The position numbers and the translations under genes were made by a program. A model generated the notes under the pieces. The model was not told the DNA's origin, did not search any database, and worked only from the letters and a program-made list of their open reading frames with translations. Source: Gammaproteobacteria bacterium (GTDB lineage: Bacteria > Pseudomonadota > Gammaproteobacteria > Steroidobacterales > Steroidobacteraceae). Taken from it: DNA of 58,203 nt. Positions 9,798 through 25,893 of this stretch are shown here, in pieces (position 1 is the first letter of the stretch; each line of letters begins with the position of its first letter). Location of the stretch: assembly GCA_043746615.1 (NCBI GenBank), contig JAYTQR010000205.1, positions 1-58,203 of the forward strand. The letters are read 5' to 3'.

Positions 9798-9956
9798 AAG
9801 TTGGCATACTAGCGCGGCGAGCAGCGAAAACCAGCCATGCCGCCGACTATTGAACTGCAAAATCGTGGCGCTCTGCTGCATGCGGACGGCAAGCGCCGCC
9901 GCGCCGCGCTAGGCGGCGGCGACACGCGCCCGGCGGCCGGGACCGCCGCCGTGCCG

Positions 9957-11024
9957 TCAGGGCAGCTGCATATGCAGCGGTTCGGGCGGCGGCGGCGGTT
10001 GCGGAGGCGGGGGCGGTGGGGGCGGCGGATCTAGAGGCACGCCGCGCTCCCGCAAGATCGCGACGTTGACATCCTCCTGCCGGCGCAACGTGCGCATGTG
10101 CGCGAGCCGCCAGCGCGCGTGCGCGCTCCGTAGCCAGGGCAGCAGCGGCCGATCGAATTGCGCAGCAGACCTCCTGCGCCATTCCAACACGCGTCGGCGC
10201 TCGGCGAGCGCGCGGGCATCCTTGCCGTCCGCCGGCGCAAAGCGCCTCTCGAGCGCGATACCGATTAATTGTGCGCTGATCGTGTCGCTGTTGCGCAGGA
10301 TGCGTGCGACCGTCACGCAGGATGCGCGCCGCTCCGTGCCTGTCTTGGAATCCCGGCACGCGTCGACCAGCGTGGAGAAATGCACCAAGATTTCGGCGCC
10401 TGCGATCCGCTCGACAAAGGCGAGGCGCGTCGCGTCGGAATCGGCGAACGAACCCGGCAGACTTTTCGACACCGCTCGCAACGCGTCGAACATCAGCACG
10501 ACGACGTGGTTCCAATAAAAGTCGACCCGCGTACCCTCTGCCATGTGCCGAAGTACGCGGTCGATCTCCATCGCGTCCTGTTCCTTTTGCGCTGCCGCGA
10601 GCGTCGGCAGCCAAGCCGCGGCGTTGTCCGGATCCAACCAGCGCAACTCGGTCGCGGCGCCGCGGATGTCGCACAGGGGCGTCAATGCGCAGACGCGCAG
10701 CCGGATCCAGCCGATCGCCGTATCGTCCGGCGCCATGTCGGACGCGCGGCTCGCCAGGCTGAGGGCCGTCGGATCCGCGGTGGCCGCACTCGCCGTGGTT
10801 TTCGGCGTAGCTTTGCCGTCGATGGGCTCAGCACGCAGAATTGCTGCCGTTGCCAAGGAGTTCTGGTTGCCCCGCTGTATCAGTGCATGGATCGCGGCAG
10901 CGCGCCAGATTCGGTACGCGTCGGCTCCGCGGTGCACGGCGGTCAGCGGCGCGGCACGCGCGTAGATACCCGCGGCCGAGTTCAAAACCAGAAATGCGAA
11001 CAGCGGCAGGCTACGCGTGAACAT
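9957..11024 (-). CDS. hypothetical secreted protein with C-terminal poly-proline tail
   Basis: ATG start and signal-peptide-like MFTRSLPLFAFLVLNSAAGIYARA. Non-repetitive 355-aa body, ending ...DPPPPPPPPPQPPPPPEPLHMQLP. Confidence 0.6.
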   Translation of the reverse strand: MFTRSLPLFAFLVLNSAAGIYARAAPLTAVHRGADAYRIWRAAAIHALIQRGNQNSLATAAILRAEPIDGKATPKTTASAATADPTALSLASRASDMAPDDTAIGWIRLRVCALTPLCDIRGAATELRWLDPDNAAAWLPTLAAAQKEQDAMEIDRVLRHMAEGTRVDFYWNHVVVLMFDALRAVSKSLPGSFADSDATRLAFVERIAGAEILVHFSTLVDACRDSKTGTERRASCVTVARILRNSDTISAQLIGIALERRFAPADGKDARALAERRRVLEWRRRSAAQFDRPLLPWLRSAHARWRLAHMRTLRRQEDVNVAILRERGVPLDPPPPPPPPPQPPPPPEPLHMQLP

Positions 11025-20671: not shown

Positions 20672-22030
20672 TCATCCCAATAGATGCGCGAAGTAGCTGT
20701 TGCGCAGCCGGTTCAGCGGATCGGATCTCTTGCGCAGTGCGCCGAATAAACGAGCCCGCTCGCCGAACGCCTTGACGACGTGTTCCGGCTGCAGTGCGCG
20801 GGTTTGATTGAAGGTCGGCGTGCCGTTCTGCGTGGACGCAAAGTCGTTGAAGTCGATCAGGAAATCTTCCCAGCCGTGTTCGGCCGACGACGACGGCTCC
20901 AGTGTCACCATGTTGCCGGAATAGCTCGCGCTGAAAAGCGAATTCCGGTCTTTGTGCAGGCGCGCGGCGCCGGTGACGATGTTGCAGCGATACTGGTATT
21001 GCTTGTAGTACGCCCGGCAGAACGCGAAATACTCCGTCAACACCCGCGGATAATCAGCTTGTGGGAACGCCCATAGACTGTACGTATAGCGTGCCTTCCA
21101 GGCTTCGGCGGGCAAATCCCGCATCCATTCTTGTGCATAAACGATGACGCCGCGTCCCGCGCGTCCCTGCGTCGCATTGAGAGCGCGATGCACGCCCGAC
21201 AGCACCGCGCTGCGCAAGCCCGGCGTGGCGAGCACGCTGCCGACCGACGCTCCGAACGCCGGCAGCACGTTGCGCAGGACGGAATTGCGAATCTGCCAAA
21301 TGCCCGAGCGGCCTGTGCTCGCCTCTTCGTCGACGACGCGCTGTTCGACGGTCACGCGGTCATTGAACGGCGATAGATGTAGCCGCAGCGCGCCGGGCGC
21401 GGCGACGATTTTCGCGTAACGGGCGCAGAATTCGGCGAGCGTGTAAGCCTGATATTCGATCTTGACCGGCTTGACCGGACCGACGCGCAGCACGACCTCA
21501 TGGACGATGCCGAGCAGCCCGAAGCTGGATCGCAGGACCCGCATCAGGTCGCGTTCGCGTTCCGTCACGGTCAGTTGTTTGCCCTGCGGCGTGACGATCT
21601 TCATTTCGGTCACGCACGAGGCCATTTGCGCGAGGCCCTCCTGATACGAGGCCTGCGGCAGCGTCGCGACAGCGAGCGCGCCCACGGTGATATTGCCGAT
21701 TTCGGGCGTCAGCGGCAGTTCCAAGCCGCGTTCGCTGAGCGCACGCACCAAAGTACCAACGCGCACGCCGGCCTGCGCGCGCACGCAACCGTCGTCGATT
21801 TTCAAGATCTTGTTCAACTCGCCGGTACAGAGCGCGGTGCCGTCGTCGCTGCCGCCACAGCGAGTCTGCGAATAATCGGCACCGACCGGCCGAATTGGCG
21901 ATGGATACGCTTTTGGCTTGCCTAAAATAACCGCGATATCGTCGATGCGCCGCGGACTCAGCATGAGTCGCGGACGGCGATGAACGCCGGAACGTTCCGC
22001 ACGCGGCGATCGTGTCACTTTCAGTACCAT
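20672..22030 (-). CDS. FAD-binding (PCMH-type) oxidoreductase, substrate unknown
   Basis: ATG at 22030. N-terminal FAD-binding-4-like segment (...PIRPVGADYSQTRC...LNKILKIDDGCVRAQAGVRVGTLVRALSERGLELPLTPEIGNITVGALA) and a C-terminal oxidase-like domain. Preceded by the GEMM-I riboswitch. Confidence 0.8.
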   Translation of the reverse strand: MVLKVTRSPRAERSGVHRRPRLMLSPRRIDDIAVILGKPKAYPSPIRPVGADYSQTRCGGSDDGTALCTGELNKILKIDDGCVRAQAGVRVGTLVRALSERGLELPLTPEIGNITVGALAVATLPQASYQEGLAQMASCVTEMKIVTPQGKQLTVTERERDLMRVLRSSFGLLGIVHEVVLRVGPVKPVKIEYQAYTLAEFCARYAKIVAAPGALRLHLSPFNDRVTVEQRVVDEEASTGRSGIWQIRNSVLRNVLPAFGASVGSVLATPGLRSAVLSGVHRALNATQGRAGRGVIVYAQEWMRDLPAEAWKARYTYSLWAFPQADYPRVLTEYFAFCRAYYKQYQYRCNIVTGAARLHKDRNSLFSASYSGNMVTLEPSSSAEHGWEDFLIDFNDFASTQNGTPTFNQTRALQPEHVVKAFGERARLFGALRKRSDPLNRLRNSYFAHLLG

Positions 22031-22127
22031 GGCTTCCCCCCGGAAGATTGCAACGCTAGAACGACGCAAACCTACTGTTGGGGGTGCAGACCGCGCGTCA
22101 TTCAGGCAGCGCGGATAGCGAGTCGAG

Positions 22128-22230
22128 AGACTGGCAACCCCGCTGTCGTCAGGCGTCCTAGCGGATGCCTCTTAGACCGGTGGCTTTGCGTCCCCGCCTT
22201 TCAGCGGGTTTGCCCTTAAAACAGTGCGGT
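22128..22230 (-). promoter_or_regulatory. cyclic-di-GMP class I (GEMM) riboswitch aptamer
   Basis: Minus-strand RNA: GCACUGUUUUAAGGGCAAACCCGCUGAAAGGCGGGGACGCAAAGCCACCGGUCUAAGAGGCAUCCGCUAGGACGCCUGACGACAGCGGGGUUGCCAGU. It shares the conserved blocks of V. cholerae Vc2 (AGGGCAAACC / GAAA tetraloop hairpin / GGGACGCAAAGCC..CCGG..CUAA / AGCGGGGUU.CC). The P2 hairpin CCCGCU-GAAA-GGCGGG and a closing ACUG/CAGU P1 are visible. It lies about 100 nt upstream of the FAD oxidoreductase ATG. Confidence 0.85.
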
Positions 22231-22405
22231 CACTATGCGGTGAACCCACGCGTCTGTAAAGAGTCGCGTGCGACGGCCTCCAAAAAACTCATGAATTCAT
22301 GCAGTTACCCGTTTAGCAAGGGTATTTCGGCATGCTCGGCGGCGTCCGGCGTGCCGCCGGGGACGTCGGCTATGCGCAGCCGCGTTGTGTGCGCAAGTGC
22401 GGGGT

Positions 22406-23326
22406 TCAGCGCAGGGTGGAATTCAGTAGGGCGAGCCTACCCTCGAAATCGCCAAACCCGGCCATATGAATGCTGCCGGCCGGAAACTGCGACGGCTCCG
22501 CGTAGAAGGATGCAGCGCCGCCGATCCAGATTTCAATGTCTTGCCGCAGACCGGCGCGCAGCGCGGCCAGTTGCCGCAGCGAAAGTTCCAGGTTGTCGGG
22601 CATGACCATGCTGATCGCGACGGCCGCGGCGCTGACGCGTTGTGCGAAATTCGCAATCGCTGCGGGTGGCAAGTCGGGACCGAGATAGCAGGTGCGCAGT
22701 TTGTGACTGGCCGCCACCGCCGCGAACATCAGGATGCCGAGCTCATGCAATTCGCCGCTGATCGTCGCGAACACGATGGTCGCGCCCTTCGCGGCCGCGC
22801 TGTACGCCTGCAAAATACCGCTGATCTGACGCCGCATGGCGCTCGAGACCATCCGCTCCTGACCGACGGTGAATTCCCCCCGATGCCAACGGTCGCCGAC
22901 TTCACGCAGTACCGGTGATAGTACGTCGCCGAGGACCGTGCTCAGCGGCAATAGCGCGAAGGCCATCGCGATCACCTGATCGCACTCGCCGGTTTCGTAA
23001 TTCTCGATCGCATGCAGCAATTTGCCGCCAAGCGCGTGCGCCGCCGCGCCGTTGGTCCCGTCGCCGGCCCGATCTGCGAGCAGCAGCATCAATTCGGCGT
23101 CGGACAGGCGCGCAATCTTGCTGATCGAGTGTCCGCGATTGGTCGTTTCGCGCAGCCGCCGCAGCCGCGCAACGTCGCATGCCGTGTAGAGCCGGTGACC
23201 ATCGCAGCCGCGTTTCGGCTCGACGATGCTGTAACGGCGCTCCCAGGCACGCAAGGTCTCGACGCTCAGGCCCGTGGCGATGGACACCGCCTTGATCGAA
23301 TAATGCGTGCCGTCGTTATTCGACAC
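22406..23326 (-). CDS. MerR family transcriptional regulator with C-terminal cobalamin (B12)-binding domain (CarH/LitR-like)
   Basis: MerR HTH YSIKAVSIATGLSVETLRAWERRYSIVEPKRGCDGHRLYTACDVARLRRL. B12-binding Rossmann domain with ATISGELHELGILMFAAVAA (E-x-H-x-x-G lower-ligand His motif). GTG at 23326 with an upstream GAGG is preferred; the track ORF runs to GTG at 23449, which would overlap the upstream gene. Confidence 0.85.
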   Translation of the reverse strand: MSNNDGTHYSIKAVSIATGLSVETLRAWERRYSIVEPKRGCDGHRLYTACDVARLRRLRETTNRGHSISKIARLSDAELMLLLADRAGDGTNGAAAHALGGKLLHAIENYETGECDQVIAMAFALLPLSTVLGDVLSPVLREVGDRWHRGEFTVGQERMVSSAMRRQISGILQAYSAAAKGATIVFATISGELHELGILMFAAVAASHKLRTCYLGPDLPPAAIANFAQRVSAAAVAISMVMPDNLELSLRQLAALRAGLRQDIEIWIGGAASFYAEPSQFPAGSIHMAGFGDFEGRLALLNSTLR

Positions 23327-23406
23327 GCTGCGCCTCGATCGCGCGCAGGGTGAGATCCCGGGCAGATAACATAGCGGGTCATTGTAACCCGCGATACCGT
23401 ACCCGC

Positions 23407-25893
23407 CTACGAAGAGGCCGTGCGCGGCGGCCGCACCGTGGGTGCGCACAAGACCGCGTGATGGGCGACTCCGCCGCCGCGGCTCTGACTGGCCAGAATC
23501 TCGAGGAAGCTGTCTTTTTCCATGGCGTCGCCGAAGAGGCGGCCCTGCGCAAAGTGGCAGCCGTGCCGCCGCAGAAATTCCAATTGTTCGGCGGACTCGA
23601 CGCCTTCGGCGACGACTTCGAGATTGAGGCTCTTGCCCATATCGATGATCGTGCGGACGATCGCGGCGTCGTCGGAATCCACGGCGACGTCGCAGACGAA
23701 CGATTGATCGATCTTCAAGGTGCCAATCGGGAATTGCTGCAACGCTGAAAGCGACGAATATCCGGTGCCGAAGTCGTCGATCGCCAGGTGCAATCCCATG
23801 CCGTACAACTCGTTCAGCAGGAAAATTGTGCGCTTCGGATCGGTCATCAACGTCGTCTCGGTGACCTCCAGCTCGAATGACGTCGGCGAGACTTCATGCT
23901 TGCGGAAAATGGCGCGCGCGCGCGCGATGAAGCTCGATTGCTTCAGCTGCCGCAACGACAGATTGATGGCGACACGGCCGGGTTGCGGCACGACGCGTTG
24001 CCACTCCCGGTAATCGGCGCAAACTCTGTTCATGACCCATTCGCCGATTTCCGCGATCAAACTGGTTTCCTCGGCGAGCGGAATGAAGTGCGCGGGCGAA
24101 ATATCCCCGTGGCCCGGCAGCCGCCAGCGCAGCAGCGCCTCGGCGCCGACGACACGCCCGTCGCGCAAATCGACCTTCGATTGATACAGGATGACCAGTT
24201 CGTCTCTTTCCATCGCGCGCCGCAGCTTGCTCTTCAGCATCAAACGCTCCACCGCCACGGCGTTCATCTCGGGGACGTAGAACGCGCTCGAGTTGCCGCC
24301 GTTTTGCTTGGAGTGATACATCGCCGCATCGGCGTTGCGGATCAGGTCGATGACGTTTTCGGCATCGTTCGGGCACAGCGCGATGCCCACGCTCGCCGTC
24401 AGATACACCTCTTCCTGATTGACGTAAAAAGTCCGGCTGATCTCGTCGAGCAACGTCCGCGCCAGTGCGCCGATGCCGGCGCGATTGTCCGCATCGGGCG
24501 GCAGGTCGTCGATGAACATCGCGAATTCGTCTCCGGCCAGACGGCCGATGATCGTATCCTTGCTCAAGTTCCGCGTCAGGCGCTCGCTAAGGATCTCCAG
24601 CGTGCGATCGCCGGCCGCATGCCCGAACGTGTCGTTTACTTCCTTGAAGCGATCCAAATCCAGATACAGCAGCGCGAGCGAGCGCTGGTTGCGGCGCGAG
24701 CGGGCGATGGCCTGCTGCAGCAAATGCTGGAATTGCATTCTGTTCGGCATCTTCGTCAGCGTGTCGTAGCGCGCCAAATAGCGAATGCGCCGCTCCGCGC
24801 GCTTGCGCTCGGTAATGTTGCGCGCGACGTATATAGTGCCCTGGAACTGCGGGTCGGCGGTGCTGATCGGCGAACTCGCCATCGACACGGGGATCGTCTG
24901 TCCGCTAGCGGTACGCAACACCGTCTCGCGGGCCTCCGACGCGCCGGGCGCCGGATCGAATCCTGGACGGTGCGGCTCGTCGATGAAACCGACCAAGGGC
25001 TTGCCGAACAGCTCGTCGTCCTGGTAACCGAGCAGCAGATGCGCGGCCTCGTTGCAGCTCTTGACTGTGCCGTCGGGCGAGGTGACCAACACCGCGTCGC
25101 TGAGGCTGTTCAGCACCGTGTTCAGATAATTCTTCGTTATCGTCGTTTCCCGCAATTTTTGCCGCATGCGTTCCAGCGCCGATTGCAGTTCGCCGATTTC
25201 GTCGCGGCGCACGACGGCAAGCGGCCGCGTGTAATCACCCTCGCCGATTCGGTCGGCGGTCTTCACCAATGCCGCGATCGGGCGCGCCAATTGCCGGGCG
25301 ATGAACCACGCCCCCGTCAATCCCACGAGCAACAGCAGCCCGCAGAGACCCGCGAGGCGGCCGACCACCCGGGCGGCCTGGCGCTGCTGCTGATGCTCGA
25401 GTTCCGCGCGCAGTTCAGCGAGCGTCCCTTCGAGATTGGCCCTACTCATCCAGATACGCAGCTCGCCGACGCGCCGCGGCACGTTGCCGCGCAGGGTAGC
25501 TAGAATCTTGGTTTGCAGAACGAAGGGTCCGCTCACCGACCGCGGCACGCGTGCGGCGGTGTTGCCGTAGACGACATTGCCGGCGGCGTCCGATACCTCG
25601 ACGCGTTCGACGTCGTTTTGCCGGAGCAGCCGTGCGGCGACCGCGGCGATCGCCGCGGTATTCCCCGACCTTAGCGACGTCGCCAGCGAAGAGGCAGAAA
25701 TTCTGCTGAGATTGTGCGCCCGAGCTTCGAGATCCGACTCGATCTTGCTGCCGACGGTAGCGTTCGCAAGCTCGGTGATTTTTGTGGCGTCGGTGCGGTT
25801 TGCATAGTAGACCAGGTCGCAGAGCAGGCCGGATAGCACAACGACGACCACAAAGGCCATCAGCGTATAGTTTGTTTTAAGGCTCCGTGCCAT
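23407..25893 (-). CDS. membrane sensor, HAMP-PAS-GGDEF-EAL c-di-GMP turnover protein
   Basis: Two TM helices flank a periplasmic region of about 150 aa. HAMP (ARPIAALVKTADRIGEGDY), then PAS. The GGDEF domain carries the variant AGDEF signature. The EAL domain has ELVILYQSK, EALLRW, ELEVTE, DDFGTGYSSL, KIDQSF and EGVE motifs. Confidence 0.92.
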   Translation of the reverse strand: MARSLKTNYTLMAFVVVVVLSGLLCDLVYYANRTDATKITELANATVGSKIESDLEARAHNLSRISASSLATSLRSGNTAAIAAVAARLLRQNDVERVEVSDAAGNVVYGNTAARVPRSVSGPFVLQTKILATLRGNVPRRVGELRIWMSRANLEGTLAELRAELEHQQQRQAARVVGRLAGLCGLLLLVGLTGAWFIARQLARPIAALVKTADRIGEGDYTRPLAVVRRDEIGELQSALERMRQKLRETTITKNYLNTVLNSLSDAVLVTSPDGTVKSCNEAAHLLLGYQDDELFGKPLVGFIDEPHRPGFDPAPGASEARETVLRTASGQTIPVSMASSPISTADPQFQGTIYVARNITERKRAERRIRYLARYDTLTKMPNRMQFQHLLQQAIARSRRNQRSLALLYLDLDRFKEVNDTFGHAAGDRTLEILSERLTRNLSKDTIIGRLAGDEFAMFIDDLPPDADNRAGIGALARTLLDEISRTFYVNQEEVYLTASVGIALCPNDAENVIDLIRNADAAMYHSKQNGGNSSAFYVPEMNAVAVERLMLKSKLRRAMERDELVILYQSKVDLRDGRVVGAEALLRWRLPGHGDISPAHFIPLAEETSLIAEIGEWVMNRVCADYREWQRVVPQPGRVAINLSLRQLKQSSFIARARAIFRKHEVSPTSFELEVTETTLMTDPKRTIFLLNELYGMGLHLAIDDFGTGYSSLSALQQFPIGTLKIDQSFVCDVAVDSDDAAIVRTIIDMGKSLNLEVVAEGVESAEQLEFLRRHGCHFAQGRLFGDAMEKDSFLEILASQSRGGGVAHHAVLCAPTVRPPRTASS

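Follow-up and report, generated by a model that had tools for sequence, protein, structure and literature searches.

Riboswitches of the c-di-GMP-I (GEMM-I) class, which sense cyclic diguanylate (c-di-GMP) and include Vc2, were reportedly described by Sudarsan et al. in 2008. We analyzed a stretch of DNA of 58,203 nucleotides (nt), here called the window (contig JAYTQR010000205.1, positions 1 to 58,203), from a soil metagenome-assembled genome (MAG) of the family Steroidobacteraceae, in which an RNA of this class precedes the gene of a flavoenzyme. The window RNA has the fold and the ligand-contact nucleotides of Vc2 from Vibrio cholerae, as well as its place in a same-strand 5' untranslated region, and it resembles many other members of the class in that the gene under its control has no obvious link to motility or biofilm formation (PMC7266159). 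It differs from the class in its target, a gene of the ALO/GLDH/DprE1-like family, and in its expression platform, in which a helix between a run of Cs and a run of Gs would sequester the Shine-Dalgarno (SD) sequence. A literature search for c-di-GMP riboswitches together with this flavoenzyme family or with FAD oxidases, or for c-di-GMP in Steroidobacter, returned nothing relevant, within a searchable literature that is incomplete.

Two further described systems join c-di-GMP to cobalamin (B12), and both bear on the window, where genes for a GGDEF-EAL protein and for a MerR-type B12-binding regulator (MerR-B12) lie upstream of the riboswitch. In Desulfobacca acetoxidans, tandem adenosylcobalamin and c-di-GMP-I riboswitches form logic gates, three times within 7 kb (Sherlock et al. 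2022, PMC9481103). There, B12 and c-di-GMP jointly gate one transcript, as a preliminary description of the window had proposed for its four parts (PMC9481103). However, both sensors in Desulfobacca are RNA and share one leader, whereas the B12 sensor of the window is a protein gene that was placed upstream by a deletion. Fusions of B12 photoreceptors with diguanylate cyclases also exist, as in the photocobilin AbDPcob (PMC11796333, PMC10979010), and a search of the Protein Data Bank (PDB) with the MerR-B12 protein retrieves 8J2Y, a "GGDEF domain-containing protein." Fusions of the AbDPcob type link cobalamin sensing to c-di-GMP metabolism in one polypeptide, whereas the B12-binding and GGDEF-EAL proteins of the window are separate genes that are adjacent in some lineages only.

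Open reading frames (ORFs), Pfam domains and a match to the Rfam family RF01051 placed the GGDEF-EAL gene, the MerR-B12 gene, the aptamer and the flavoenzyme gene at or near the positions first described for them, all on the minus strand and within 5.2 kb. The self-contained circuit that had been proposed from this proximity, with B12 or light and c-di-GMP acting together, did not hold up: the parts vary independently of one another, the flavoenzyme gene has a private promoter, and the layout arose from a deletion. With good confidence, we consider the functional unit to be a stand-alone, monocistronic mRNA composed of promoter, aptamer, platform and flavoenzyme gene and controlled by c-di-GMP, with the neighboring genes separate from it. 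Transcription would start from a private sigma-70-type promoter at the 5' edge of the c-di-GMP-I aptamer, and a C-run in the leader would pair with the G-rich SD of the flavoenzyme gene. The level of c-di-GMP would be set by all of the cyclases and phosphodiesterases of the cell, and the ligand would shift the balance of the SD-sequestering helix and in this way control initiation of flavoenzyme translation.

The comparison covered 4 genome loci, 8 loci retrieved through an exact match to a protein sequence and 80 loci from metagenomes, which contain 81 distinct orthologous flavoenzyme genes in total; neighbors were counted at the 21 distinct loci whose upstream flank extends to 10 kb. The orthologues are 69 to 83% identical, and their sources are metagenomes of soil and peat as well as MAGs with a Steroidobacteraceae label.

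The aptamer (22130 to 22224, minus strand) matches RF01051 at 22224-22130 over the full model (positions 1 to 87). The match reaches 80.2 bits (E = 3e-14), where the gathering score is 35, and no other Rfam match occurs across the 58-kb window. A covariance model built in-house from seven orthologous leaders found the aptamer 5' of the orthologous flavoenzyme gene in 87 of 90 sources. Across the aptamer matches, 98.4% of cells pair, and eight pairs, mostly in the distal helix, change on both sides in a compensatory manner; none of 500 shuffles matched the observed values, and slid controls paired at 33 to 53%. We take the positions G20, A47 and C92 (Vc2 numbering), known from Vc2 structures, to be those that contact the ligand. 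Each of the 84 complete aptamers has G, A and C at the corresponding positions, with CC at the 3' junction, and the window RNA itself has a G 5' of the GC pair, an A 3' of the GC pair and CC at the 3' junction. Because the in-house model recovers the aptamer in nearly every source and its helices covary, we conclude from the alignments that the match is not due to chance, that the window RNA is a canonical member of the c-di-GMP-I class and that it is predicted to bind c-di-GMP. The original riboswitch call is thus upheld by its score above the gathering threshold, by its recurrence and by its covariation.

A different ligand would follow if the RNA were a specificity variant, either of the c-di-GMP-I-GGC type (RF03167) or of the cGAMP type. 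Rfam does report RF03167 by clan competition for the leaders L001-L004, L034, L095 and L096, at 59 to 69 bits against a cut-off of 59. However, at the diagnostic position, taken from the Rfam RF03167 consensus, that family reads GACGC-G-AA where these RNAs read GACGC-A-AA. The equivalent of A47 is A, that of G20 is G and the 3' junction is CC in every one of the 84 complete aptamers, and the window RNA scores 80 bits as RF01051. A specificity variant is therefore scarcely credible here. The RF03167 identity was rejected, the diagnostic nucleotide being A in every sequence, and the labels on the orthologous leaders are best read as marginal artefacts of clan competition, since the A47 equivalent is A throughout. 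Clan competition that names canonical A47 aptamers "GGC" variants could mislead automated ligand assignment.

A promoter scan identified a sigma-70-type promoter, TTTACA-17 nt-CATAGT (22232 to 22260, minus strand; read 22260-22232), that ends 8 nt 5' of the aptamer. Neither hexamer varies across the aligned leaders of the orthologues, even where the locus has no MerR-B12 gene. These alignments indicate that the promoter is dedicated to the riboswitch-flavoenzyme mRNA, and the predicted transcription start lies at the 5' edge of the aptamer. Farther upstream, about 25 to 35 nt 5' of the -35 hexamer, lies an AT-rich element (22270-22300, minus strand) that in the window takes the form of a TGAATTCA palindrome. 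Its equivalent in L001, L003 and L004 is TTGAATT(T/A)A. The element is kept in loci with and without MerR-B12 alike, and it may serve as an UP element or be bound by a further regulator.

The leader between the aptamer and the flavoenzyme start, about 100 nt in length, constitutes the expression platform (22031 to 22129, minus strand), which was delimited by an alignment of 68 distinct leaders and an RNAalifold consensus. In the window the order is a hairpin (22114-22091), a C-run (22084-22080), a variable hairpin, a G-rich SD and the ATG, with the SD GGGGGGAAG at 22041-22033, 2 nt 5' of the ATG. The 68 leaders share this layout, with one or two covarying hairpins followed by the C-run, the variable hairpin and a G-rich SD (CUUCCGGGGGGAAGC) placed 2 to 7 nt 5' of the ATG. 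In the consensus helix, GUUU..CCCCCCG pairs with CGGGGGGAAGC. The equilibrium ensemble gives the pairing of the C-run with the G-run of the SD a probability of 0.80 in the window and a mean of 0.48 over 60 leaders. The platform thus most likely acts by SD sequestration, that is, at the level of translation, as judged from the leader alignment.

An unlikely but not a negligible alternative is that the riboswitch controls transcription, by Rho-dependent or intrinsic termination within the leader, in place of translation initiation. Consistent with it, most leaders carry a conserved covarying hairpin and then GGUUUUG 5' of the C-run, and equilibrium folding gives no ligand-dependent change in SD accessibility, the values being alike with the aptamer constrained and free (0.38 and 0.37). 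Yet the terminator scan of the window leader found no intrinsic terminator-like site, the U-rich tract of the relatives sits within the stem and does not trail it, and the complementarity of C-run and SD, with compensatory changes at its flanks, is the most conserved feature of the platform. For these reasons, we retain SD sequestration as the preferred mode of action. Its direction is less firmly indicated. A call of ON or OFF from thermodynamics was dropped, given the near equality of the two accessibility values, and pairing of the C-run with the 3' G-run of the aptamer was never seen in ensemble folding at equilibrium. We lean slightly to a switch that c-di-GMP turns OFF, since the aptamer can be folded while the sequestering helix is formed as well.

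The flavoenzyme gene (20672 to 22030, minus strand; 452 amino acids) encodes a protein whose N-terminal region matches PF01565 (FAD_binding_4) at 62 bits against a cut-off of 26.4, over positions 1 to 138 of the 139 in the profile. Orthologues are 447 to 454 amino acids long, mostly 452, and their N-terminus is conserved, and for this reason the ATG at 22030, just 3' of the SD, is judged to be the right start. The public gene call (P0001) gives 430 amino acids, 95% of the 452-amino-acid ORF, and probably starts about 22 codons late. The genes 3' of the flavoenzyme gene are convergent plus-strand ABC-transporter genes, and the flavoenzyme gene is therefore monocistronic.

Although TIGR01679 (bact_FAD_ox) aligns with the protein from end to end, it does so with 79 bits against a cut-off of 292, and the protein lies below every equivalog cut-off in NCBIfam. 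Its nearest solved relatives are L-galactono-1,4-lactone dehydrogenase (GLDH; 8QMY), xylitol oxidase (2VFR) and DprE1 (4FDN), with which it has the N-terminal FAD_binding_4 domain in common; identity over the FAD domain is about 20 to 25%, a figure estimated by eye and not computed. At the position of the histidine to which FAD is covalently attached, the window protein has Tyr (VGADYS) and GLDH has Leu (VGSGLS), so that neither has His there, and the FAD of the window enzyme is probably non-covalent. The ALO C-terminal domain (PF04030) was not reported for the window protein itself, but precomputed annotations give it for the orthologues P0003, P0005 and P0009, and it is present in distant homologues. 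Among distant homologues such as P0132, P0133 and P0153, some are fused to an N-terminal short-chain dehydrogenase (SDR), others to a GMC-oxidoreductase or to MpaB/Lcp, and the SDR fusion resembles the DprE1/DprE2 oxidase-reductase pair of epimerization. The C-terminal domain and these fusions hint that the enzyme oxidizes a sugar, a polyol or a lipid-linked alcohol. From these similarities, we infer that the protein belongs to the aldonolactone/alditol oxidoreductase and DprE1-like group of the VAO/PCMH superfamily and would have a chemistry of that kind.

The association of riboswitch and flavoenzyme extends beyond Steroidobacteraceae orthologues, which form a single 50%-identity cluster; in an exhaustive HMMER search, which found about 1,400 family members, the next full-length relatives were 28 to 38% identical. 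In one clade (P0130, at loci L094 and L095), whose flavoenzymes are 34 to 37% identical to that of the window and sit between a MacB/FtsX gene and sulfate-activation genes, RF01051 or RF03167 matches lie 76 to 77 nt 5' of the gene. In a second, P0393 (L096), which is 41% identical and has yet another gene context, an aptamer lies 120 nt 5' of the gene. The leaders of both have A at the diagnostic position and the arrangement of a C-run followed by the SD, and these loci show no GGDEF, EAL or MerR-B12 gene within 5 to 6 kb. A second aptamer of the c-di-GMP-I clan occurs in L096 (1205-1287), 3.5 kb 5' of the riboswitch-flavoenzyme pair, where it precedes a gene for a hypothetical protein of 124 amino acids without a Pfam match.

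These sequence comparisons argue that the link between riboswitch and flavoenzyme is older than the neighborhood in which it is found in the window, and that it is recurrent, not universal. The earlier proposal that a c-di-GMP-sensing RNA gates the flavoenzyme is accordingly borne out to the extent that the pairing occurs in essentially all orthologous loci and in two distant clades. It is very probable that the pairing with this orphan ALO/GLDH/DprE1-like family in three deep clades (34 to 41% identity) marks an undescribed redox or sugar-oxidation output under c-di-GMP control. Near another homologue of the family, one that has no riboswitch and comes from a genome of 8.8 Mb, a group II intron (RF00029) with a reverse-transcriptase/maturase ORF, along with a DDE transposase gene, was found 5' of the flavoenzyme gene (L097, 2669-4131).

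The GGDEF-EAL gene and the MerR-B12 gene belong to a long block that is syntenic among the Steroidobacteraceae. The fullest order among relatives begins with HD, VanY and DsbA (the latter two reverse), GGDEF-EAL (forward), in some cases ABC-F (forward), MerR-B12 (forward) and in some cases PLD (forward). It continues with the Mla operon and CDGSH (both reverse), Kef (forward), the riboswitch and enzyme (forward), bPH and ferritin (both reverse) and, beyond a gap, ABC-2 and GntR (both reverse). A GGDEF-EAL orthologue was present in 20 of the 21 long-flank loci and a MerR-B12 orthologue in 9 of them. In relatives, the GGDEF-EAL gene lies 3,320 to 9,481 nt from the flavoenzyme start codon and the MerR-B12 gene 2,353 to 7,501 nt from it; the corresponding distances in the window are 1,380 nt and 379 nt. 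Intervening genes in the listed loci are kef, CDGSH, ABC-F or PLD, and several of these loci have the opposite-strand Mla operon. We take the GGDEF-EAL and MerR-B12 genes to be separate transcription units of the block.

The intergenic DNA of the window retains a trace of what was lost. On the minus strand, 22305 to 22355 (read 22355-22305) comprises 16 codons and a stop that translate to GTPDAAEHAEIPLLNG, and Kef proteins of relatives, encoded by the Na+/H+ exchanger gene kef with TrkA domains, end in GTPEAVEHAETLLLMG with the stop in the same register. In the DNA alignment with L003, 42 of 60 nt are identical here, whereas the 50 nt before them reach about 36 to 40%. Orthologues of Kef, Mla and PLD were looked for across the window and not found. 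Given the remnant and the missing genes, the compact "module" is best explained as a product of gene loss in one lineage, in which kef was lost and CDGSH, Mla or PLD probably were as well. Among the 81 distinct loci, the compact four-part layout is unique to the window. The preliminary description had named conservation of the four-part arrangement in relatives as the test of its circuit, and on this test the circuit failed.

As originally conceived, the four-part circuit would have the CarH-like regulator govern transcription in response to B12 or light while the GGDEF-EAL protein sets the level of c-di-GMP that the riboswitch reads, the two jointly gating the flavoenzyme. Besides the shared strand and the short span of all the parts, it draws some support from the repeated occurrence of MerR-B12 directly after GGDEF-EAL (in the window, L011, L023 and L026). 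Against it stand the unique, deletion-made layout, the invariant private promoter that the flavoenzyme keeps where MerR-B12 is missing, and the distant riboswitch-flavoenzyme pairs, which have neither neighbor. Further, most loci lack MerR-B12, one lineage has it in decayed form, and another has it without the riboswitch. The last case is that of L011/L012, which keep intact GGDEF-EAL, MerR-B12 and flavoenzyme genes and a promoter-like site similar to that of the window (TTGACA, about 15 nt, CATAGT). Neither the in-house covariance model nor Rfam found an aptamer there (9840-10000), and we take it that this lineage has lost its riboswitch naturally. In addition, as detailed below, the regulator lacks the EH element of the light signature, and neither an operator-like repeat common to the two promoter regions nor CarH-type direct repeats were found. 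We regard the four-part circuit as highly unlikely. If true, it would be a new architecture in which a protein sensor of B12 or light, a c-di-GMP enzyme and a riboswitch converge on one enzyme, a significance that falls away because the comparative data show an accident of gene loss.

A narrower possibility is local signaling, in which the syntenic GGDEF-EAL protein, though transcribed separately, would be the dedicated sink or source of c-di-GMP for the riboswitch. Its presence within 10 kb upstream in 20 of the 21 loci would fit a preferential functional link of this kind. Against this, the whole block is syntenic, with HD, VanY and DsbA on this side and GntR-ABC, Ldh and DinB on the other, so that GGDEF-EAL is not alone in this co-occurrence. 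Neither the spacing nor the set of genes in between is constant, and opposite-strand operons are among the latter; at L001 no GGDEF-EAL orthologue was seen within 8 kb; L011/L012 have the flavoenzyme and GGDEF-EAL, but not the riboswitch; and in the other clades the riboswitch-flavoenzyme pairs lack a GGDEF or EAL gene in their vicinity. Being a small molecule, c-di-GMP can diffuse, and no means is known by which an mRNA leader docks to one enzyme. Local signaling thus seems improbable, and a cell-wide pool of c-di-GMP acting on the stand-alone mRNA is preferred.

Several results nevertheless weigh against a stand-alone unit under c-di-GMP control. The thermodynamic modeling described above gives no response of SD accessibility to the state of the aptamer, and an AlphaFold2 model of the flavoenzyme was too poor to use (mean pLDDT of 47.6 from a 22-sequence alignment at 70 to 83% identity). 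The aptamer is missing from three other homologues, P0490, P0420 and P0475, which are 55 to 60% identical to one another. The near-constant presence of GGDEF-EAL upstream belongs here too. Lastly, the terminator scan found no terminator-like site between the MerR-B12 stop and the riboswitch promoter, a point in favor of the four-part circuit. Because no such site precedes the riboswitch promoter, read-through from the MerR-B12 promoter is possible in the window genome. It can be imagined that the lineage of the window was rewired after the kef deletion, with such read-through into the leader bringing the flavoenzyme under joint control of B12 and c-di-GMP and the adjacent phosphodiesterase tuning the signal; this would be the four-part circuit in a newly evolved form, but we give it little credence.

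The GGDEF-EAL gene (23407 to 25893, minus strand; 828 amino acids) encodes a protein with HAMP, PAS, GGDEF (146 bits) and EAL (242 bits) domains by Pfam and NCBIfam, and two hydrophobic segments enclose a stretch of about 145 amino acids that is presumably periplasmic. The preliminary description had it making or degrading c-di-GMP. Degradation is favored by intact EAL active-site motifs (EALLR, AIDDFGTGYSS and AEGVES, the last containing EGVE), and the best NCBIfam matches are phosphodiesterases. Synthesis is less certain, in that the GGDEF motif reads AGDEF and the RxxD I-site is absent, its position reading LSKD. AGDEF domains have been reported to be active in some proteins. Given these motifs, the protein is probably a signal-regulated c-di-GMP phosphodiesterase whose cyclase activity is uncertain.

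Just 3' of the GGDEF-EAL stop lies a hairpin, GCGGGT-TACAATG-ACCCGC (23374 to 23392, minus strand), that was scored as a terminator-like site. Where MerR-B12 directly follows GGDEF-EAL, its stem shows compensatory changes (GCGGGT/ACCCGC, GCCGG/CCGGC and GCGGCG/CGCCGC), which are clear in L011 and L023 and less clear in L026, while the loop keeps a -10-like TA(C/G)A(A/G)T. The region as a whole spans 23340-23392 (minus strand) in the window, about 1500-1560 in L011 and about 6600-6660 in L023, and is also found in L026; a block of about 30 nt, TATCTGCCCGGGATCTCACCCTGCG, is conserved 3' of the hairpin in three lineages. It could be a terminator, a MerR-B12 promoter with its -10 box in the loop or an operator, or a leader element. 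In several relatives, the MerR-B12 start abuts or overlaps the ABC-F stop, which suggests that the two genes are co-transcribed there.

The MerR-B12 gene (22406 to 23326, minus strand) encodes 306 amino acids, the same as in the public gene call. PF13411 (MerR_1), PF02607 (B12-binding_2) and PF02310 (B12-binding) all score above their cut-offs, and the closest solved relative is Thermus thermophilus CarH (E = 1e-29, residues 8-247). All of the domains of TtCarH (PDB 5C8D/3WHP), namely, the MerR helix-turn-helix (HTH), the four-helix B12-binding_2 domain and the Rossmann B12-binding domain, are present in the window protein. The published signature of B12-dependent light responses consists of GxxW, GxxH, EH and GxxxP elements, with EH as the one in contact with the adenosyl moiety (PMC11796333). 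GDRW, the His ligand in GELHELG (GELH) and GPDLP occur both in the window protein and in its orthologues, but EH is replaced by ER in the window (residues about 150-152, QER) and in all 12 aligned orthologues (ER-bearing orthologues are those of L002, L011, L023, L026, L034, L042, L047, L066, L072, L075 and L089). The protein also differs from CarH/LitR in reaching only 148 bits against the cut-off of 400 of the NCBIfam CarH equivalog (NF052513), and no carotenoid or photolyase genes were found near it in the window.

The assignment of this regulator to the CarH/LitR type therefore stands for its domains and its GxxH, GxxW and GxxxP elements, but not for the EH element or the equivalog. The conserved motifs suggest that it likely binds B12; light sensing is uncertain, because ER takes the place of EH, and the ER clade may be a B12 sensor that is light-independent or differently tuned. 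We take the CarH operator to be nAnnTnnACAn in tandem direct repeats that overlap the target promoter. This consensus, which may not fit the present clade, had no match in the three intergenic regions and no tandem pair spaced 11 bp apart on either strand of the window, and a repeat search found no operator-like repeat common to the MerR-B12 upstream region and the flavoenzyme promoter. In L007-L010 and L046 (6738-7457), MerR-B12 has decayed, with a frameshifted HTH and a deletion of about 15 residues around the His ligand, and the public calls there are of 178 to 230 amino acids with only the B12-binding_2 domain.

The pairing with a c-di-GMP-I riboswitch would tie an orphan flavoenzyme family to the c-di-GMP regulon of abundant soil Steroidobacteraceae that have not been cultured. 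The leader and the flavoenzyme gene together would offer a defined handle on the outputs of c-di-GMP in this family.

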